From Schmidtea nova (lineage: Eukaryota): DNA of 57,279 nucleotides. The stretch lies in contig CM097883.1 in NCBI GenBank assembly GCA_044892505.1, positions 408,152,722-408,210,000 of the forward strand, in the 5' to 3' direction. The notes beneath the pieces are model-generated. The model saw only the letters and a list, made by a program, of their open reading frames with translations. It ran no database searches and was not told the origin of the DNA. This document shows, piece after piece, positions 14,204 to 45,089 of the stretch (its first letter is position 1; every line of letters starts with the position of its first letter). The position numbers were made by a program, and so were the translations under genes.

Positions 14204-15698
14204 ATGAATATTTCTCGCTGCGAATTCGACTTATTAAATGGGAATATTCTCAATTTGCACAATGAAATTAAATCGCTGAAGGAGGAAATGGGCCTCGTGA
14301 AGAGGGGCAGATCGGCAGGTGAAGTATGTCACTCATCATTGGATTTTACCAGAATGATTTACAAATTTTAGGAAACAGACAAACAAATAATATCAGTATT
14401 CAATTTAATCAAACAAGAAATGGCAAGTTTGAAAAATGAGAACTTCGCTATGAAATTGGAAAATCAAGATTTAAAAGTTGTTTTTGTTGTTGTTGTTGTT
14501 GTTGTTGTTGTGTTGTTGTCGATGTGTTGTTGTTGACATTGTTGTTGTTTGTTGATGTTATTGTTGTTATTTGTTGTTGATAATGTTGTTATTGATGTTG
14601 TTGTTTATATTATTGTTATTTGTTGTTGTTGATATTGTTGTTTGTTGTTGTTGTTGTTGATATTTTTGTTATTTGTCGTTGTTGTTCGTTGCTGTTGCTG
14701 ATATTGTTGTTATTTGTTGTTGTTGCTTGTTGTTAATATTGTTGTTATTTGTTGTTGTTGCTGATATTGTTGTTATTTGTTGTTTTTTGTTGATTTTGTT
14801 GTTGTTGATATTGTTGATATTATTGTTTGTTGTTGTTGATAATGTTGTTATTGATGTTGCGGTTGATGTCATTTGTTGTTGTTTGTTGATAAGGAGAAAG
14901 AAATGAATATACTAGTCCTTTGATTTTATTAACCGCTTATTTCAGCAACAAATCGATGTTTTGAATGTGAAGATCGAATCAACAGCCAATGAAACTAAGC
15001 TATTATTGAACAATAATCGCAAGGAGCATTTTAAACAAGTGCTAATTTTGCAATAAAAGTCAGATTTATATATTTTCCCATAGAATATATTTAGAGCGGC
15101 AATGGATCACAGTTGTACTGAAACGGCTGCTAATTGGGAGAAGTGGACAGAACTGGATAAAATTGTCAAATTCACCAAATCAGTCACACACCAGCTGGAG
15201 ATGAAAATGATAGATATCGAATTGGCAATTGAAAGGTTGGATTACGGATCACAAATATGGATCATCAATGATTAGAAGGAGAAAATGGATCTTTCCAAAA
15301 TTGGGTTAAATGCTGAGATTTTTAGTAAATCGTTTTATTCTCACAAATATGGTTATAAAATGGGCCTAATTCTCAACCCAAAGGGATTCAGTAAAGGGAA
15401 AGGGTCTCACTTGTCTGTGTTTTTCGGGATAATCAAAGGAGAATTCGACGATGTCTTACCGTGGCCGTGCAGAACTAATGTTACCATTGAACTCATTGAT
15501 CAAACCAACGGATCAGTTCACACGAGGAAAACAACAAAGTTTGAAAGAAATTCAACTAACGAGGCCTACCGAAAGCCGATAGTTGAGAGAAACGTTGGAA
15601 TTGGATTTTCAAAATATATAAAGTATTCAGAGCTGCTAGCAAAGGAGGGACTCACGAAAAATAATAAAATCATTCGTAAATGTAAATTTATAAAGTGA
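14204..15698 (+). pseudogene. Second TRAF-family locus (coiled coil and MATH), probable pseudogene. Exons about 14204-14323, 14372-14476, 14946-15038, 15084-15698
   Basis: MATH motifs FYSHKYGYKMGLILNPKG, GSHLSVFFGIIKGEFDDVLPWP and NVGIGFSKYI. There is an in-frame TAG at 15273-15275, a GTT-repeat block at 14477-14887, and no recognisable RING upstream. Confidence 0.8.
14477..14887. repeat. Degenerate (GTT)n/(AAC)n low-complexity block
   Basis: Directly visible. Confidence 0.95.
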
Positions 15699-34964: not shown

Positions 34965-35065
34965 TACATATTTATATGTGTGTGTGTGTATTTATTATCA
35001 TAAGTAGATAAATCAATAATTATATAATTATATAATATAAATTCATGGAATGAAATTTGCCTTCA

Positions 35066-35803
35066 ATGACACCCCGCCAACCATTGATGCGTGTTTGCAT
35101 TAACATTTGCGATTATCTCACAAAATCTGCGAATGATTTAGCTCACAAGGGTTTCTATTTGAAAGCCGTCCATTTCCATGAAGCTAATAAATTGATTATC
35201 AAAAATCTTTTCACCGAAAATAATTTGCTCCCGAGTGAAGAAGCAAAGATTGAAGAACTACTGAAACTGACCGACGAATATATCGAAGGTCTGAAGCCCC
35301 ATTGTGAACAAGAACTATTCCCAAAAGTGATTAGCATCAAATCTGGCGACACCGGATATAATTATTACAAAATCACAAAAGACGCATTAGATGGATGTGT
35401 GAAATCAGCACAGATATATGATCCATACATCAGATCACAATATCAGATAAATAATTTGTTCCGCCTAGTAAAAGTGTTGATTGATCACGAAAAGAATTTG
35501 ACACAAATAAATTTGTTTACGGGTCAAATTCAAAACAAGAAGCATATTGGCCAACAGGTAGACGGATTAGAAAACATCAAGTCACACTTGTTACTAACTC
35601 AACCGGAAGTCCATTTTCAGTATAAGTTTAGCAATGATTTTCATGATCGTAAAATATTATTCAGCAACGGTTTCGTGATCTCACTGGGAAGGGGTCTAGA
35701 CATCTTTTCTGATAACAATATTAATGAGGATATTGAAGATGAGAGGAAACGTTGCAAGGAAACTGACATTTACATTTTTCGATCTCTTTCTCTCTACAAA
35801 TAA
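35066..35803 (+). CDS. MITD1: MIT domain-containing protein 1 homologue (MIT and PLD-like MIT_C), intronless, about 245 aa
   Basis: TGYNY, IYDPYIRSQYQINNL, FHDRKILFSNGFVISLGRGLDIF and RCKETDIYIF match the MITD1 C-terminal domain. The N-terminal helices are MIT-like. The start could be the ATG at 35066 or 35087. Confidence 0.9.
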   Translation: MTPRQPLMRVCINICDYLTKSANDLAHKGFYLKAVHFHEANKLIIKNLFTENNLLPSEEAKIEELLKLTDEYIEGLKPHCEQELFPKVISIKSGDTGYNYYKITKDALDGCVKSAQIYDPYIRSQYQINNLFRLVKVLIDHEKNLTQINLFTGQIQNKKHIGQQVDGLENIKSHLLLTQPEVHFQYKFSNDFHDRKILFSNGFVISLGRGLDIFSDNNINEDIEDERKRCKETDIYIFRSLSLYK

Positions 35804-36699: not shown

Positions 36700-37140
36700 C
36701 CCTAAATGTCCGATATACGCAATTAATTGCAGAGGTTTCCTTTCCAAATACTGTCTCAAGTACAGATATTTCCTTTCCTTTGTTTCATCTGTGTCCTCGA
36801 TGCAAGCTCTCACAATTGCTCGCCATCAAGAATATTCCATGACCCTTCCATTGAATACCGTAAGCTATAAGGGTTTCATCCCTGTCAACAGTTTTGGTCT
36901 TTCCTTAACCTTCTTAATCTGAAAAGATTGTTCCCCAATCTTAAATGATTCCATTTTAATACTTTCTTCTTTTTTACTGAACGCTAGCTCTCCTATTCGA
37001 TTAAATTCCGCTTCCAGTCGGCCGATGTCTCTCTCAATATCTTTAAGTTCGCTTCCTCTCTCTTATTCCCGAGCTTGCTGCTTCAGCTTTTCGAATTCTG
37101 TCTGCTCAAACTTTACTCGAGATTTCATTAACATTATTAG
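36700..37140 (-). mobile_element. BEL/Pao-like gag fragment (DUF1759-like)
   Basis: KPL*LTVFNGRVMEYS*WRAIVRACIEDTDETKERKYLYLRQYLERKPLQLI matches the L.LP.F.G...Y..W...F....EK..YL.QYL pattern. Confidence 0.65.
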
Positions 37141-37166
37141 TACTGTAAATAGATTTAACTTTGTTT

Positions 37167-37776
37167 TTAAACCATGGCTCCTTCCTTGTTGAAAATATCA
37201 GTATTAACTCTTAAATCATCACTGCATTGTTGTGTGAAATCTAGGAAAAGATATCCATGAGAAGCTTTTGTAGCCTTTTGAAACGCATCAATCAGGAAGT
37301 TCCGATTTGAAGGGTAAGCTTGTCTTGCCAGAAAATCAATAACTGTTGCATCTCTAGGATTTTTAAAAACAGCAAGATATTGAACATTAAAATTCCGGGT
37401 TCGATGACTACATCCCTGATGAAATAAATTCTGAGTAATAAAAATAATTGTAACACCTTTGTGTCTACTGATTTTCGTAAATAAATTATTAAAGTCCTTT
37501 TCTTTGTTGGCTTTTTGATAAAAGTCATCAATAATAATGACTTCCTTGGCGTAATCTAGATGACCAGTTTTTATCGAAACATTTTATGATTGTCATTTTT
37601 ATTTTACAAAATTGATCTTGAGTCATTCCATGTTCATCATCAGCTCCCCTATGCCAATATATTTAATTGAATTTAGATTTGAATAATTTAGATTGCAACA
37701 ATTTACAAACAAATAAAGTTTTCCCACTCCCGCTCGGTCCAATAATTTGAAACACTGCATCATTTCTTTATTCCAT
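37167..37776 (-). pseudogene. Polinton/Maverick-type DNA-packaging ATPase (A32/FtsK-HerA family)
   Basis: Walker A GPSGSGKT (37717-37740), Walker B VIIDD, then LFTKISRHKGVTIIFITQNLF, RTRNFNVQYLAVFKNPRD, FLARQAYP, AFQKAT...HGYLFLD and RVNTDIF. It has two premature stops and one frameshift, so it is absent from the ORF track. Confidence 0.9.
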
Positions 37777-37869
37777 ATTTAAAAATTATATTAAATTAGT
37801 ATTATTGTTTATATTTGTTATAAATACTAGTTGTCATTGTATTTGTTTCATTTAAAAATATTTTCAGTA

Positions 37870-38483
37870 ATGATTAGAAACATTAATTATAAAGGTAAGA
37901 CATATGTGAATTTTCCAAATGAGAAACCACAGCAAATTGTAGATAGAAGTGGGAAGTATCCAATAATATACTTTAAGACAGGCATTTATAGAATAATGGG
38001 ATGCAAGGAATTTATTAGTGATGAAAAAGTAAAGTTTGACGATTTAACAATACAATCGATCACTGTAACTGCAGATTTATTTGTAATTTAAATGAATTAT
38101 CTAAATTGATAGAATGTGTTTACGAGCCAGAATTATTTCCAGCTTTGAGATATATCAAATATAATCCCATGTGTGTAATTATATTTGCAAGTAGTAAATT
38201 AGTCATTTTAGGATTAAAAAACAAAGACTATTCAAATATAGTTGATAATATTATTAATGATATAAAATCAATTATCGAAGATAAAGCCTTTGTTGATTTC
38301 ATACTAACATGTGACTGCAATATTGATGCAATAGAAATGCACGATTATGATTGGTCCAGTATGTATTTCGAGAATAAAGAAATGTTGTGCATGCTTGAAT
38401 CTGATTGGTTCAATGTGTATTATTTTATACATGTTGTGTGTTTCTATCATATATATATTTATTGTATGAACATTCTATCATAG
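37870..38483 (+). pseudogene. Divergent TATA-binding-protein-like gene (copy 1, frameshifted)
   Basis: LTIQSITVTADL, YEPELFPALRY and IIFASSKLVILGLK correspond to TBP repeat 2 (FKIQNMVGSCDV, YEPELFPGLIY, LIFVSGKVVLTGAK). The first half IYFKTGIYRIMGCK resembles a shortened repeat 1. A 7-bp deletion near 38080 relative to copy 2 breaks the frame. Confidence 0.75.
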
Positions 38484-38570
38484 TTTATATCTAAAAAAGG
38501 TGCTTAAAAGAAACTATGCTAAAAAGTGGTAAGGATAACACTTATTATTTTTCAATTTTAATATTATTTA

Positions 38571-38679
38571 TGTGAGATAATAAGACAATTTAAATATTTA
38601 TTCAGTCAATAAATCTACTTATTTAAACAACTTTATTTTCTTTTATAAATCATTATTTTAAATTATTCTTCTTTATACA
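38571..38679 (-). repeat. 3' LTR
   Basis: Identical to 42029-42137. Confidence 0.97.
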
Positions 38680-41405
38680 TCTCCCCGAGATTCTAACAAA
38701 TCTTCATTCCTGTGCCTCAAGTCAGCTACATGACGCGGCATTGCCACGGTTCCGTAATCGACGATTGCTTTATGCGGAGACAGCAGCTTCATGATTCTTC
38801 CTCTCATCCAGGAAGATGTACATGGTTGATTTTGCGAGGGTTTCACCCACACCTTGTCGTTAATCTGAAAGCCATTGTCTATTTGTTGAGCCGTTCTTTT
38901 CGTTTCATTAAATCGAAGTCTTAGGTCATAAGCGTAAATGCCTTTTATCGGAGGTCTGGAAGAACCATTTACTGGTGTATTATTGTACCAGTAAATTGCT
39001 TCTTGCACTGAGCATTCCGATCGCGTGACTGCAGCTTTTATTGTTTTATGGTTCCTCTCAATAATGCCGTTGCCTGCTGGTCTATTAGCGGATCTGAATT
39101 CAGTTCTAATTCTCCACCTTTTCATTAGAGAAGTGAAAGTTTCTGACCTAAACGATAAGTAATTGTCCAACAGAAGCTCGTCAGGAGGTCCTCTTTCATA
39201 AAATACCTGTTCCAACTGCTTGCAAATTTCGTCTGCGCTTTCGTTTCGTATTTCTCGCCAAATCGCAAATCGAGAAGGCCCACAATCTATGATTGTTAAA
39301 AATTTTCTTTGATGTAATTTAGTCACATCGATAGCTAATCGTTTCCAAGAATCTTTTACCTCTAATTGCCCTTTGCTGATCTTAACCGGATGAGGGTCTA
39401 TTGATTGACATTTGTCACACTTCTCGACAATCTCTTTTAACTCATTTTGAGAAAGGTTAATTCCTGCTTCCTCGGTCAAGAACCTCAACCGATCTCCTCC
39501 GAAATGGCTTAATTTGTGTATTTCAACTGCGTTCTTGATGGGATCTTCACCCGGGTCTAGCAACGCCGTATTACACGTATGTTTCGTAATCCAATTTGAG
39601 GGAATTCTGGTTAATATGTCGGATTTATTTTTGTCTGTTGGAACGTATTCTATTTCAGCCTTTATCTCATATTCAATAATTAATTCTTTAATTATGTTGA
39701 GCCTTCTTTTTACTAACATTTCTGAGGAAGCTTTAGTTGAAACCTTTCTCTCGGATGTCAAGGCATTATGTACCCAACTTACCACGGATTTGTTATCCGA
39801 CATGATCTTAACAGTCTTTAAATTCCATTTGATGCATAAGTTGATGCCTTTAACGATCGCCTCAAGTTCGCACAGGTTAATGTGCCTAACGTCCTTCTCC
39901 TTTCTCAACCAGCATGCGTCTTCCATAATATTTCCGTCGATTTCTAGCGCTGCTCCTATGGCGATAGAGCTGGCATCACACCATAAAATATTTCCTCTGT
40001 CCATTGGTGCTTTCCATATACCATGAGCTGGATCATTCTTTTCAACCTCCTTTATTAACCATTTAACTTTGTTTAGTAATTGAACGTCGATTGGCCGGTC
40101 CCATTCTCCTTCGCTTAATCGTTTGAGATAAGAGCACGCGGGTCGTAACCAACCTGCAACTGGAAGAATTCCGGTTAATTGACCGCATAACGAATACAGT
40201 TCTCGTCTGTCCATTCTCTTTTCTTCAAATTCGTACCGGATGACATTGGCTCGGTTCCATTTTAATAAGTTATCCTCAATATGAACTGATAATCCAAGTA
40301 TTCTTAGAGCTTTTGTTGATGAGGGGCGTTCAATTTCTTTCGTCATCAAGTTAACTTTTTCTAGCCAGGCTTTTACTTCTTCAGCTGGGACAACTTCTTC
40401 GTCGATAAAAATATCGTCAATGTACGCACTGGCTCCTTGTTTTATTCTGTCATTTAAACCCAACACGTAGTTAACGATCTCTGTCATAATACTGGGAGCG
40501 ATATTGATTCCGAAGCCTAGTCTTGTCAATGCATATCGCCTTCCGTTTACAATGCATGACTGGTACTTCCACATACTCTCATCAACCCGGATTTGCATGT
40601 ATGCATCAGATAAATCCAAAATCGCTATTTTCTTTCCCTTCTTTCTCCAATCTCTTATTGTTTCATTGCAAACTACTGCTTCTCCACTATAGACGTCTAA
40701 ATAATGATTTAAAGCTCTAAAATCGAACACTGGCCGTATTTTGCTCTTGTTCTTTTGCATAACCGGAAATAAAGTTACTGCTCCAACAGGCTTACCGAAC
40801 CGGTTTTCGTCATATTCGACTAACCATCCATTTTTGACCCACTGCTCGATGACTTTGAGAGCCTGGCCTGCTTTGGGCTTATCTGGATCTAACTTGGAAT
40901 ATCGATCTGACATTGATACTGAGGGTTCTGTGTTCCAATTCCATGATACCATCCATTCTTTGTTGAACGTTGCTTCGAAGTTCTTCCTTTGAATTAAAAA
41001 ACTCTGAGCTTCGTTTCCGTTTACAGCCATCAAACATTTCAATTCACATCCGAATCTGACGTCTTCACTGATTGTCACTCCTCCTAGTGCTATAATGGCG
41101 TTCATACCTAATATGACATCATATCCCGCTATCATTTTTCTAGAAATAAAACAGTCAATGATAAAGTACTTTCCTTCTAATTCGATTTCTGCCTTGCTCT
41201 GGCTCACTGGCAGTATTGATCCATCTGCTAGGAACACTTGAACGTTGGGTGATGTGATGGCTTCTCCGCGTATAATTGTTGTCGAGCAGCCGGAATCTAT
41301 AAGACAAAGACGTTTTGATCCATTTATGGAAAGGAGTCTTTCTTTTAACATCTTTTTGGGATCGAGAGAGACTCCTGAATATTCTCGATCCCGTTGTCTT
41401 TTCCC
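38673..41405 (-). CDS. pol: Pol polyprotein (PR-RT-RNase H-integrase), probably entered by a -1 frameshift from gag
   Basis: PR LIDSGCS; RT LDLSDAY, TRLGFG, YIDD; RNase H CDASS, ELEA, SDN; integrase H-x3-H...C-x2-C, IDVT, LDN, IERNH; Gypsy domain order. The stop codon lies inside the 3' LTR. Confidence 0.95.
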   Translation of the reverse strand, partial: GKRQRDREYSGVSLDPKKMLKERLLSINGSKRLCLIDSGCSTTIIRGEAITSPNVQVFLADGSILPVSQSKAEIELEGKYFIIDCFISRKMIAGYDVILGMNAIIALGGVTISEDVRFGCELKCLMAVNGNEAQSFLIQRKNFEATFNKEWMVSWNWNTEPSVSMSDRYSKLDPDKPKAGQALKVIEQWVKNGWLVEYDENRFGKPVGAVTLFPVMQKNKSKIRPVFDFRALNHYLDVYSGEAVVCNETIRDWRKKGKKIAILDLSDAYMQIRVDESMWKYQSCIVNGRRYALTRLGFGINIAPSIMTEIVNYVLGLNDRIKQGASAYIDDIFIDEEVVPAEEVKAWLEKVNLMTKEIERPSSTKALRILGLSVHIEDNLLKWNRANVIRYEFEEKRMDRRELYSLCGQLTGILPVAGWLRPACSYLKRLSEGEWDRPIDVQLLNKVKWLIKEVEKNDPAHGIWKAPMDRGNILWCDASSIAIGAALEIDGNIMEDACWLRKEKDVRHINLCELEAIVKGINLCIKWNLKTVKIMSDNKSVVSWVHNALTSERKVSTKASSEMLVKRRLNIIKELIIEYEIKAEIEYVPTDKNKSDILTRIPSNWITKHTCNTALLDPGEDPIKNAVEIHKLSHFGGDRLRFLTEEAGINLSQNELKEIVEKCDKCQSIDPHPVKISKGQLEVKDSWKRLAIDVTKLHQRKFLTIIDCGPSRFAIWREIRNESADEICKQLEQVFYERGPPDELLLDNYLSFRSETFTSLMKRWRIRTEFRSANRPAGNGIIERNHKTIKAAVTRSECSVQEAIYWYNNTPVNGSSRPPIKGIYAYDLRLRFNETKRTAQQIDNGFQINDKVWVKPSQNQPCTSSWMRGRIMKLLSPHKAIVDYGTVAMPRHVADLRHRNEDLLESRGDV
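41332..41405 (-). other. -1 programmed ribosomal frameshift signal (slippery site and H-type pseudoknot)
   Basis: G GGA AAA in the gag frame, a 6-nt spacer, a 10-bp stem 1 and an 8-bp stem 2. Confidence 0.8.
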
Positions 41406-42016
41406 GATTTACAATATCGGGATTGGTGTCCAAGCATTTCACACCTAGAACATTGAATTTTTTTCTTGTTCGGACAGTTACGGGCAAAATGATTTTCATT
41501 ACAAATATAACATTGCATCTTCTTTATCTTCGCCACAAAGGCAGACTGATGTCCATGAGTTAGATTCAGTCGTGAAACGATGTCACCGATTGCGTCGATC
41601 GTCGTTGATCCTTGTCGTCTCACCTCAGCTGCGATTTCTACTGGCAAGGATTTGATTATAATGTTTATTAAGAGATCTCCAGCGTTACAAGCCAGATTCT
41701 TCATTTCTGATAAATGAATGTTAATATTGTCCCCGATCTGGAATCTCTTGTTTAACAACTTGGAAAAACATGCTTCTGGGGGATCGCTGAAAGCTCGTAT
41801 CAATGATATTTTAATTTCTTCATAACTAATATCTTCGTTTTTCGCTGCTTCCTTCAAGGTGATAAATGCCTTCCCCTTCATGACAGCAGGTAAAATTTCT
41901 TTTTTTCCATTGAATTTGTGAAGCTTGCATATTAATTCAAACTTATCGAACCATTCATCGATTTTCACGGTTTCGCCGTCAAAACATTCGATTGCATTCA
42001 ATATATCTTTTATCAT
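41345..42016 (-). CDS. gag: Gag with two CCHC zinc knuckles (about 223 aa)
   Basis: FDGE...DEWFDKFE, CYICNENHFARNC and CSRCEMLGHQSRYC. The first ATG after the LTR is at 42016. Confidence 0.92.
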   Translation of the reverse strand: MIKDILNAIECFDGETVKIDEWFDKFELICKLHKFNGKKEILPAVMKGKAFITLKEAAKNEDISYEEIKISLIRAFSDPPEACFSKLLNKRFQIGDNINIHLSEMKNLACNAGDLLINIIIKSLPVEIAAEVRRQGSTTIDAIGDIVSRLNLTHGHQSAFVAKIKKMQCYICNENHFARNCPNKKKIQCSRCEMLGHQSRYCKSGKDNGIENIQESLSIPKRC

Positions 42017-42028
42017 GCCCGGATAGCT
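42017..42028 (-). other. Atypical primer-binding site complementary to nt 1-12 of tRNA-Lys(UUU)
   Basis: Sense AGCTATCCGGGC is the reverse complement of GCCCGGATAGCT. Confidence 0.7.
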
Positions 42029-42137
42029 TGTGAGATAATAAGACAATTTAAATATTTATTCAGTCAATAAATCTACTTATTTAAACAACTTTATTTTCTT
42101 TTATAAATCATTATTTTAAATTATTCTTCTTTATACA
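42029..42137 (-). repeat. 5' LTR
   Basis: Identical to 38571-38679. Confidence 0.97.
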
Positions 42138-42154
42138 ATTTATTTTTTAGAAAA

Positions 42155-42459
42155 GCTGATGACAATCGTATACAAGAAAATGGCCAAAATATTTCCGAAC
42201 CTCATGCCAACACTGACCTACGGCACCAGAACTCTTTCCGTATACGATTCAGGTGTTAACAGGGATAGATGTCCACCGGATCATATTGGATCATCTCGCA
42301 AATCTTAACAATGATTTGCCCCATATGGCTGAGCACATCCTCTGTGCATATCAATGCGGGAATTACGTGGAAAGGATCCGAAAATTTCATATTTGGGTTT
42401 TGAGAAACTCCCTCAAACAATATGAAACAGCACAATTGGAAAAAGTTGAAATCCAATAA
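42155..42459 (+). pseudogene. Unknown 'gene B', copy 1 (frameshifted, 3'-truncated)
   Basis: Paralogous to 43073-43545 (NLMPTLT..APELFPY...LTGID...DH.ANLN.DLP.MAEHILCAYQCGN). Confidence 0.7.
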
Positions 42460-42927
42460 TTTATTTTAAGACAAGCAGATATAGAATAATGGGATGCAAG
42501 GAATTTATTAGTGATGAAAAAGTAAAGTTTGACGATTTTACAATACAATCGATCACTGTAACTGCAGATTTAAGATTCATTTGTAATTTAAATGAATTAT
42601 CTAAATTGATAGAATGTATTTACGAGCCAGAATTATTTCCAGCTTTGAGATATCAAATATAATCGCATGTGTGTAAATATATTTGCAAGTAGTAAATTAG
42701 TCATATTAGGATTAAAAAACAGACTATTCAAATATAGTTGATAATATTATTAACGATATAAAGTCAATTATTGAAGATAAAGCCTTTGTTGATTTCATAC
42801 TAACATATTGATGCAATAGAAATGCACGATTCTGATTGGTCGAGTGTGTATTTCGAGAATAAAGACATGTTGTGCATGCTTGAGTCTGATTGGTTCAATG
42901 TGTATTATTTTGTACATGATGTGTTTT

Positions 42928-42966
<39 letters not shown>

Positions 42967-43060
42967 TATGAACATTCAATCATAGTTTATATCTAAAATG
43001 TGTTTAAAAGAAACTATGATGAAAAGTAATTAATATTTTTCAATTTTAATATTATTTATT
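42450..43060 (+). pseudogene. 5'-truncated second copy of the TBP-like gene
   Basis: Highly similar to 37960-38570. It retains ADLRFICNLNELSKLIECIYEPELFPAL in one frame but has its own 2-bp deletion, and contains an expanded (TA)n at about 42931-42965. Confidence 0.85.
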
Positions 43061-43072
43061 TTTTCAGAAAAA

Positions 43073-43545
43073 ATGATGACGAAATTGGCAGAAATCTTCT
43101 CGAACCTTATGCCAACACTGACTTATACGGCGCCGGAGCTGTTCCCGTATAAGAATCAGATGTTAACAGGGATAGATGGCACCAGACCTTGCTGGATCAT
43201 TTTGCAAATCTCAACAGTGATTTGCCCTATATGGCTGAGCACATCCTATGTGCATATCAATGCGGCAATTGTGTGAATAGGATCCGCAAATTCCATATTT
43301 TGTTTTTGAGAAACACCCTCAAACAATATGAAAAAGCTCAATTGGAAAAAGTTGAGGAGGACGAGGACCAAATAAAGGCATCATTGCCCAATTCAACACC
43401 GGAGCCCATAGATGAAAAGTCAAATTCAATTATCGAATGTGATTGTTCGATGAATGTATCGAGTGGAAAACAGTGCGACGAGTCACCCGAATCTCCAGAT
43501 TGTGAAGAATGTCACAGAGTTGTTGAAAAAGAGGAACAAGAATAA
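43073..43545 (+). pseudogene. Unknown 'gene B', copy 2 (about 157 aa, one frameshift), with a Cys/His-containing core and acidic tail
   Basis: Two overlapping ORF-track entries are joined by a 1-nt frameshift near 43175. Differences from copy 1 are mostly at third codon positions. Confidence 0.7.
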
Positions 43546-43849
43546 CAAGAATAACAAAATGAAAATTATTTGTATATAATAATAAATAGGTTTTTAATGT
43601 TAGCAATTTTAGTTTTATGTCAATTTCTTTTAGTTTCATGTCATTTTAGTTTAATCATTTTAGTTCTTTTAATGTTTTGGATTTGAGTTTTAGTTTTTTT
43701 TATTTATTAAACATGTATTCATTTAATTTTAAGTAATTTTTATTATACTTTGAAATATTTATTTTTTATTAAACTTTGGAGTATATTATTATGAAATTTT
43801 TTATTTATTAAGTTTTAGTCTAGCTGTAATTACTAATAAAGAAGATATT

Positions 43850-44071
43850 ATGGCACTAAATAAAATATTTTCAAAAATCAATGTCAATTTAATTTGTAAA
43901 GAAACGATGTATATTAACACCAGAAAAATTCGTTTCCATGATGCTTTTCAAACTATCGAATTCAATAATCAAGAACACTGATTCGTTACAATAATTATTC
44001 AAGGATATAAGATTGATAAAAAGGAAGTGATTACTCCAATTTGGAGAGTTGACAATGTACGATATGCATAA
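43850..44071 (+). pseudogene. Small unknown ORF 'C' (73 codons, one internal TGA)
   Basis: MALNKIFSKINVNLICKETMYINTRKIRFHDAFQTIEFNNQEH*FVTIIIQGYKIDKKEVITPIWRVDNVRYA, co-oriented with gene B. Confidence 0.35.
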
Positions 44072-44494
44072 TTGTGATTTAATAAATTTTACTATGAACA
44101 ATTTTAGTTTTTTACTATGAATTTACTATAAATTTTACTATGAACAATTTTAACTTTTATAAGTTCGACTTATTTAATGTGACAATTAATGATAATTTTA
44201 TTTGTTTTTATTTTTATTTAATGTATAAATTTTTATTGATTAGGTCTTACGAAAATTTTTTATTCATTAAATTTTACAATATTGATATATATTTTACGAT
44301 AATTTATTACTAGATTTTACGTACTTTATTAAAATTGAAATTTTAACAATATGATTAGTAAACAATATTGATAGCCAACAGAATTTGCTCTATATTTTTA
44401 GTATAAATAAAGGAAGTTTATAATAAAGAAATGATATATATACAGTTAAATTTTGTTTTAAAATTTGTAAATAATCAACGTATTCTTAGATAAA

Positions 44495-44644
44495 ATGAGC
44501 AACACCAACAACAAAATGGACATTGACAACAACATCGATTACATCAAAAACAACGATGTCGACAACTATATGAACAACGTTATTGGTTACAATATTGAAA
44601 CAGGTGAGACAATGGATAATTCAATGGAAAAAACTGAACGTTGA
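44495..44644 (+). CDS. Small Asn/Asp-rich ORF 'D' (49 aa), unknown
   Basis: MSNTNNKMDIDNNIDYIKNNDVDNYMNNVIGYNIETGETMDNSMEKTER, in a locally GC-richer island. Confidence 0.3.
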   Translation: MSNTNNKMDIDNNIDYIKNNDVDNYMNNVIGYNIETGETMDNSMEKTER

Positions 44645-45089
44645 AAAGACAAAAGTAAGTAAATGTAAGTGTCGATTTTTATAATAATTTATTTAATGAA
44701 TGCAATTTATAATTAATTACCTTTGTACATAAATATTAAGTAAGCTTAATTATTAATTAACTAGTTTTCTTTATCGATTTTGTAATTTAATGATTATTCT
44801 TTATTTATTCAAAAGGTATTTGAAATTTTGTATCAGGAGGATATAAGCGGTATGCTCCACTACCTCAATGTGTGAACTAATATATTTTTTATTTAATTTA
44901 AAATGAAATGAAATGTCATATTTTTTTATTAAATTAAAACAAAAATTTACTTAATTTAAACAAATATATGTAATTACGTAATTAGAGAAGTAGTCACATA
45001 ATAATTGAGTTTTATTAAACATATTTAATTACCTAATTATTACGTAACCACGTGTTGCATAAAACAATAACGATTATATAATATACTCA

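Follow-up and report, generated by a model that had tools for sequence, protein, structure and literature searches.

Polintons/Mavericks (adintoviruses) are described as elements with AGTAG terminal inverted repeats (TIRs), a 6-bp target-site duplication (TSD), the polymerase pPolB, an rve integrase, an A32-type ATPase, an adenain-like protease and a putative major capsid protein (MCP) related to double jelly-roll (DJR) proteins (PMC8502044). Virus-encoded proteins that fold like the TATA-binding protein (TBP) are known from beta- and gammaherpesviruses, whose TATT-binding proteins (Epstein-Barr virus (EBV) BcRF1, Kaposi's sarcoma-associated herpesvirus ORF24 and human cytomegalovirus UL87) have, in the available excerpts of two papers, a DNA face that is polar and are paired with a variant TATA box ahead of late genes (PMC4893493, PMC12529657). 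These viral TBPs are large multidomain proteins that recognise TATT and work in a viral pre-initiation complex. Here we describe a Polinton fragment in a 57,279-nt stretch of the 1.25-Gb Schmidtea nova genome (contig positions 408152722-408210000; hereafter the window), in which a packaging ATPase gene faces a TBP-like gene. Comparison with whole copies and with metagenomic relatives suggests that a Polinton clade encodes a shortened TBP with a changed DNA face, which is probably the clade's own late-promoter factor for genes preceded by an 8-bp box, YATAAACR. To the Polinton/Maverick features listed above the element adds this short TBP, a predicted gp2.5-like single-stranded-DNA-binding protein (SSB) and the shared non-canonical box.

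The first-pass annotation of the window had described a broken ATPase gene and a broken TBP-like gene lying head-to-head, and this arrangement is indeed present. The ATPase gene (A32/FtsK type; 37158..37776, minus strand) has a frame break near 37543 and in-frame stops, the TBP-like gene (37870..38315, plus strand) has a frame break near 38076-38106 and matches Pfam TBP (E 8e-9), and 93 bp separate the two start codons (37777-37869). The junction is highly repeated in the genome: all 40 scored candidates (of 6752) matched it, the 39 outside the window at 87-93%, and a 19-letter junction pattern occurred 5039 times, as compared to 80 for its reversed control. Many of these copies are probably partial elements. 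Whole natural copies are 15-18 kb long and have TIRs of ~1 kb, which are absent, together with the TSD, from the window fragment. Four of five copies have AGTAG TIR ends, and the 6-bp TSD is perfect in three of the five, agrees at 5/6 bases in one and has unresolved ends in one.

The first arm of the whole copies encodes the ATPase, a basic core-like protein, the integrase, a putative minor capsid protein, a PZ-like protein, the putative MCP, the protease, orf144 and pPolB, and the second arm encodes the TBP (155 aa, unbroken), gene C and gene D. Unbroken 207-aa copies of the ATPase match Pox_A32 above cut-off (E 3e-5 and 2e-6), the protease matches Peptidase_C5 (E 1e-6), and the integrase combines an rve domain (E 2.5e-8) with a chromodomain. 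pPolB is a 1340-aa open reading frame (ORF) inside the TIRs, to which the PF03175 matches in the genome are 59-67% identical; a direct Pfam scan of a 1244-aa relative returned Endonuclease_7 only. The putative MCP, itself without a direct Pfam or PDB match, matches Pfam-confirmed DJR proteins when profiles are compared (E 2.5e-7 at 93% probability, 334 columns), and the putative minor capsid protein is a 340-aa ORF with no match in Pfam and PHROG scans. By each defining feature tested (TIR/TSD, pPolB, integrase, ATPase, protease and DJR capsid) the element is a Polinton, the minor capsid protein being named by position alone. The integrase, the protease and gene C are each split by predicted GT-AG introns, and transcription is therefore likely nuclear and carried out by Pol II (RNA polymerase II). 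The proposal that a Polinton lineage carries its own minimal TBP-fold protein is borne out by these copies, which hold the core set together with a TBP.

The linkage, which had rested on adjacency in the window, extends to other genomes. Scanning metagenomes retrieved 137 relatives of the short TBP, of which the best 80 were kept. A Polinton core gene lies beside TBP in 36 of these 80 loci (19/23 on contigs of at least 4 kb), and a core gene, SSB or orf144 does so in 53 (21/23 on contigs of at least 4 kb); in 5 of the 80, polymerase, ATPase, integrase and MCP genes all occur together with TBP. Full elements and metagenomic contigs thus tie TBP to pPolB and capsid genes, as the annotation had proposed to check. 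The head-to-head order is not general, with the ATPase downstream of and co-oriented with TBP in 21/24 metagenomic loci holding both. Alignment scans of a viral contig set for MCP, ATPase and pPolB returned nothing, and a TBP scan of the same set returned one full-length TBP, which groups with cellular TBPs. Some of the short-TBP Polintons (L041, L042, L077, L078, L089) carry accessory genes, encoding a dual-specificity phosphatase, an E2 ubiquitin conjugase, a RING protein, a KilA-N+DUF3627 protein and a PLA2-like protein.

Protein analyses were performed on unbroken natural copies (L011, L018). The short TBP matches Pfam TBP (PF00352; E 1e-13 and 2e-18) and 35 PDB TBP sequences, and residues 1-143 of its predicted structure (pLDDT 93.7, pTM 0.83) align to residues 66-240 of yeast TBP (Z 11.3, root-mean-square deviation (rmsd) 3.2, 143 aligned). 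As modelled, it has the two-repeat saddle fold of PF00352 and not some other fold. In the N-lobe of the model the strands are kept, and helix H1 and most of H2 (a 3-residue helix) are missing; the median spacing of the N-lobe helix region is 24 in short TBPs, as compared to 34. Among homologues, 40/47 are short relatives, and a representative search gave 64 clusters at E <=1e-30. The ratio of nonsynonymous to synonymous substitution rates (dN/dS) is 0.19 (180 distant pairs, not independent, among 23 unbroken ORFs), with 0.07 for the ATPase and 0.09 for the MCP for comparison, and the short TBP is under purifying selection.

We then mapped residues over 152 aligned family members, using Arabidopsis numbering; in the N-lobe the map rests on motif anchors and is least sure at F57. 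Three of the intercalating phenylalanines are kept (F74 in 96%, F148 in 99% and F165 in 99%) and F57 is lost. The glutamates of the TFIIB stirrup are also kept (E144 in 92%, E146 in 98%); the available text of PMC10005294 describes the role of these C-terminal stirrup residues in TFIIB contact. The DNA face, in contrast to the stirrup, is changed at six positions: V80 to R (96%), T82 to M (98%), L163 to N (99%), N117 to S/T (98%), V119 to T/S (97%) and V29 to N (73%). The short TBP thus departs from the canonical TATA-binding residue set of four Phe and an Asn/Val/Thr/Leu minor-groove set. A longer member of 179 aa (L107:3210-3746) forms its own branch and has Val where the first DNA-face residue would be Asn; the box is absent from the three plus-strand starts next to it, and this protein may have another specificity.

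In quick trees the short TBP family was split from cellular, archaeal and host TBPs with support of 100 (74 rows) and 96 (31 rows), and forcing two of the element's own copies together with four host rows was rejected in the 31-row tree (approximately unbiased (AU) test, p = 3.1e-10). The phylogenetic check suggested with the annotation thus speaks against grouping with host TBP and its paralogues, as a retrocopy would show. The host TBP loci themselves (L114-L118) comprise a canonical TBP with introns, a second TBP-like locus near which a partial inverted copy lies, and two divergent paralogues forming one group.

The short TBP resembles cellular TBP and its paralogues (TRF2/TBPL1 type, archaeal TBP; PF00352) in its two-lobed saddle, three of four intercalating Phe and a YEPELFP stirrup, but differs from them in the shortened N-lobe with H1 and H2 missing in the model, the lost F57, the six replaced DNA-face residues and its separate branch. 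With Nucleocytoviricota TBP homologues it shares the fold (best TM ~0.6-0.7), but identity is only ~9-20% in the top matches; those TBPs serve a virus-encoded RNA polymerase, and the element has no RNA polymerase gene. The short TBP likely works most like the herpesvirus TATT-binding proteins, judging by the analogy of a TBP fold that is encoded by a virus, has a polar DNA face and goes with a variant box before late genes, yet it is not of that family: its fold likeness to BcRF1 reaches E 0.017 only, and it is a 155-aa single domain with the TFIIB stirrup kept and YATAAACR as its predicted box.

A recurring ATAAAC was first seen in the 90 nt upstream of homologous gene starts. We counted it at -15..-70 after dereplication, using only starts that had a callable ATG and 100 nt of DNA upstream. 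It precedes the ATPase in 25/27 cases (22 of them at 31-49 nt) and is found upstream of 4/5 core-like, 8/10 minor capsid, 9/12 MCP and 6/9 orf144 genes, as compared to only 3/66 TBP starts and a background of 0.041. At ATPase and MCP starts its distance is mostly 30-50 nt. The flanking bases are constrained as well, with Y before ATAAAC in 57/63 sites and R after it in 62/63, giving the 8-bp site YATAAACR. In cases where the coding tail of the gene preceding MCP contains the box, the Ile-Asn pair is spelled ATA-AAC in 12/12 (13 tails, one lacking the pair), although the shares of these codons are 0.32 and 0.27. For a control we took 6/15 integrase-bearing viral contigs that had enough recognisable core genes and no TBP (a per-ORF hidden Markov model search with positive controls found TBP in L205 only); the box stood at none of 28 gene starts of these six TBP-less Polinton contigs. 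No TBP-less full Polinton family was found in the S. nova genome itself, where nine pPolB neighbourhoods comprised four with TBP, four with pPolB only and one truncated.

The window retains this box in its ATPase-TBP gap, as TATAAACA on the minus strand at 37806..37813, 37 nt upstream of the ATPase start, where it is a predicted late-promoter element. The annotation had singled out another motif in the gap, TATAAATA, which is present on the plus strand at 37819..37826 and is a candidate canonical TATA for the TBP gene. As a conserved signal it did not hold up: it is kept in one of four whole copies compared and is not conserved across subfamilies, and the conserved box of the gap is TATAAACA, on the ATPase strand.

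Genes of the second arm carry promoter motifs of a more ordinary kind. A canonical TATA lies upstream of 31/66 TBP and 7/8 SSB starts (background 0.095), at a distance like that of the box, and an initiator-like TCAYW is found at 51/66 TBP as compared to 6/27 ATPase starts (counts given with no background rate). Between the TBP stop and gene C, TGATTGG (a CCAAT box) is present in 20/22 copies, with two boxes in 15, and TATATA in 20/22. This is the region that had been called "gene B" (38320..38500 in the window, plus strand, with CCAAT boxes at 38347 and 38401 and TATATATA at 38450). Its frame ranges from 10 to 100 codons among 39 copies, with a mode of 39-40 in near-identical ones, and 127 gaps shift the frame as compared to 55 that are in frame (22 copies). 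Since the gaps ignore the frame, the frame length varies and the CCAAT and TATATA motifs are kept, we rejected gene B as a protein; it is probably a host-type CCAAT/TATA promoter for gene C whose sequence happens to spell "SDW". A second motif, a reverse-oriented TGTTTWA, occurs 43-64 nt upstream of 24/66 TBP starts (background 0.032), in 17/24 of which the canonical TATA is missing; autoregulation or a promoter of a third type may explain it.

Taken together, these observations would fit an early-to-late switch. Host TBP/TFIID would first use ordinary CCAAT/TATA/initiator promoters to transcribe the genes for TBP and SSB and gene C. The element TBP would then bind YATAAACR, for which its preference is predicted as set against TATAAAAG and random AT-rich DNA, and its intact acidic stirrup would recruit host TFIIB and Pol II. 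TAF1, Mot1 and TFIIA contact the N-terminal helices of TBP, and a protein that has lost these helices may escape the contacts made there. The N-lobe presumably reads the 3' half of the box. Host TBP would read the box poorly: in the available text of PMC10005294, TATAAACG has 27% of the activity of TATAAATA in one plant assay, and in that of PMC4402545 a C:G at this TATA position forces Hoogsteen pairs in TBP complexes. The outcome would be the late expression of packaging, integration and capsid genes. The first-pass annotation had suggested that the protein could "redirect or compete" with host TFIID; of the two, redirecting fits better, because the element's own downstream genes carry the matching non-canonical box.

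Several points weigh against this reading. The early/late split is not clean, since the box is missing at 12/20 integrase, 7/9 PZ-like and 5/6 pPolB starts and present at 3/8 SSB starts. Upstream of TBP genes overall, CCAAT is not enriched (10/66, background 0.127), and 35/66 TBP starts lack a canonical TATA. The box motif is post hoc, found in the same sequences in which it was counted, and the counted rows are related, which makes the counts look more independent than they are. As controls, the TBP-less contigs are few, partial and distant, and 5/6 look like one lineage; box and TBP could therefore be co-inherited without one reading the other. In host TBP, L72 is the leucine that clashes with C:G; this position stays I/L/V in short TBPs and so offers no account of how the C would be read. 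Finally, EBV BcRF1 binds TATA and TATT alike in vitro, in the available part of PMC4893493, so a cofactor may be needed, and no cofactor and no TFIIB-like gene was found among 51 ORFs beside short TBPs.

A host factor (Forkhead, host TBP or a paralogue) could instead read YATAAACR, with the element TBP doing another job, for example at the termini or as a repressor of its own promoter. ATAAACA does fit the Forkhead site RYAAAYA, the host has two divergent TBP paralogues (L116, L118), and the reverse TGTTTWA upstream of 24/66 TBP genes would suit such a factor, as would the activity that host TBP keeps on TATAAAC in the available text of PMC10005294. However, GTAAAC, the commoner Forkhead form, is near background (3/27 ATPase, 2/12 MCP and no core-like, integrase or minor capsid starts), the box is fixed in orientation and lies at TATA distance, and loci from many metagenomes share it, whereas TBP-less Polintons lack it. 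We therefore regard this explanation as unlikely.

The element TBP might also be a decoy or competitor that sequesters TFIIB or occupies host TATA boxes, damping host transcription, with the box unrelated. Kept stirrup glutamates and lost N-terminal helices are what a possible dominant-negative would have. A TFIIB sink, however, needs no new and nearly invariant DNA face, a TATA competitor would keep the canonical one, and the box would be left unexplained, making this possibility quite improbable. About as improbable is that YATAAACR acts as an initiator or RNA-level signal (a motif at the start site, of the kind seen in baculovirus late genes, or one for polyadenylation or processing) and not as a -30 element. 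The box is often near the 3' end of the upstream gene, but it also precedes the ATPase where no co-oriented upstream gene exists, and its distance to the ATG matches the TATA-ATG distance of TBP genes. A polyadenylation signal was rejected, because the base before ATAAAC is A in 1/63 sites, hence not AATAAA. An origin of the TBP-like gene as a host retrocopy, or its presence beside a Polinton fragment as a chance passenger, for which the several host TBP-family loci and the broken window copy might speak, is refuted by the AU test (p 3e-10 against host grouping), the dN/dS of 0.19, the enclosure of TBP within the TIRs of whole copies and its linkage to core genes in many metagenomic contigs, and we give it next to no chance.

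One contig of the viral set (L205:8011-9209) carries a Polinton-type set (pPolB, protease, MCP, integrase and ATPase) together with a different, 181-aa TBP (PF00352, E 7e-14) and, after it, a TFIIB (PF00382, E 5e-11, with a zinc ribbon), head-to-head with MCP. This TBP has a long branch of its own apart from the short clade, and none of 7 gene starts on the contig has ATAAAC; it is possibly an independent capture of TBP and TFIIB.

Returning to the element TBP as a late-promoter factor, we lean, with some reserve, towards a broader view in which a widespread Polinton clade runs its own early-to-late cascade with a minimal TBP of altered specificity. Such a TBP and its box would form an orthogonal TBP/TATA pair of natural origin, which connects to host TFIIB and Pol II and bypasses TFIID. 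Together with L205, this would mean that small integrating DNA viruses captured core factors of pre-initiation on more than one occasion, arriving convergently at the solution of the herpesviruses.

According to the available part of PMC8097293, Maverick particles have not been observed, and we found nothing in the literature on what activates the capsid genes of Mavericks. With one 155-aa factor and an 8-bp box, this activation can be tested directly. If the proposed switch is real, silent capsid genes would be waiting on one early protein, which would point strongly to an autonomous viral cycle and not to pure transposition. For structural biology it would offer a natural altered-specificity TBP, and would tell whether Pol II can initiate without the N-lobe helices.

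In earlier work, Starrett et al. 2021 (PMC8502044) have a TBP label, in the available text of the paper in figure legends only, which may or may not mean the same family. No relevant TBP/TATA passage was found in the available parts of PMC11161782, PMC10748475, PMC12220804 and two 2026 preprints, and the TBP mention in the corresponding part of PMC10675990 concerns putative mirusvirus elements. Apart from the Starrett legend label, neither a Polinton TBP nor a Polinton promoter box came up as described in our literature searches, although Repbase, figures, supplements and subscription papers may hold prior annotation. What appears to be new, as far as gene-start sequences indicate, is the non-canonical box YATAAACR before most packaging and putative capsid genes of a TBP-bearing Polinton.

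The annotation had listed three co-oriented unknown genes, B, C and D, after the TBP-like gene. Apart from B, the probable promoter, two remain. Gene C gave no match of usable score in Pfam, PHROG or Atlas. The predicted fold of gene D is an OB fold, whose four best matches among 48161 chains are DUF2815, the Enc34 SSB, African swine fever virus CP312R and T7 gp2.5 (Z 7.5-6.6, rmsd 2.8-3.8, 101-124 aligned); with these middling Z values, gene D is predicted to be an SSB, for which Atlas gave no match.

The stretch 37167..44644 had been read as one Polinton cassette. Its Polinton genes are confirmed, but 3.6 kb of it is an LTR (long terminal repeat) retrotransposon that the annotation had missed, inside a fragment that is itself broken and partly duplicated. 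Homology to whole copies spans 37104 to ~44115. At its left edge, where this homology ends at 37104, lies a 5' stub of the basic core-protein-like gene (37104..37134, minus strand), which in whole copies comes after the ATPase. The retrotransposon (38571..42137, minus strand) sits within the predicted intron of gene C and has two identical 109-nt LTRs (38571-38679 and 42029-42137), a 5-bp ATTTA duplication and unbroken gag (41345-42055, 236 codons) and pol (38673-41408, 911 codons; reverse transcriptase, RNase H and rve) frames, with a DUF7047 domain; it is young and unrelated to the Polinton. Beyond it, on the plus strand, is the truncated remainder of gene C copy 1 (42138..42450).

The TBP-promoter-gene C block is locally duplicated, with a second block starting at 42453. 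It consists of a 5'-truncated TBP-like copy with two frame breaks (42453..42817), a second CCAAT/TATA promoter-like region (42820..43000, boxes at 42832 and 42886) and a broken gene C copy 2 (43109..43545), whose protein is helical, contains Cys/His residues and ends in an acidic tail, all on the plus strand. A remnant of gene D, the predicted SSB with a T7 gp2.5-like OB fold, follows at 43757..44068 on the same strand. A separate repeat (44444..44809, plus strand), with a short Asn-rich frame ending at 44646, lies directly upstream of a pPolB gene in 2/5 other loci and is therefore probably another Polinton piece. Although the window copy of the element is dead, it points to a system that is conserved, widespread and open to testing.

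Further features were seen in whole elements and their relatives. Palindromic elements (L176-L178, same contig, 401694795-401710548; L185-L186) have ~7-kb arms that are 97.5-99.9% identical, each with a pPolB gene and no other Polinton core gene; in L176-L178 both 1244-aa frames are unbroken, and several further head-to-head pPolB pairs ~10 kb apart occur among the genome pPolB matches. One subfamily (L144:2106-2687, L148) has an extra 193-aa gene near the right TIR, with a signal-peptide-like start, a Cys-rich part, a hydrophobic segment and no Pfam match. The conserved orf144 (L017:4234-4668 and homologues) follows the protease, has no Pfam match and starts with "FID..G", which we take to be DEDD-like; it often adjoins TBP in metagenomic loci and is duplicated in L104, L105 and L096. 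Elsewhere in the window, host genes at 471-4381, 15276-15698 and 35054-35803 comprise TRAF-like RING/MATH exons, which suggest an animal host, and a gene with an MIT_C (PLD-like) domain.

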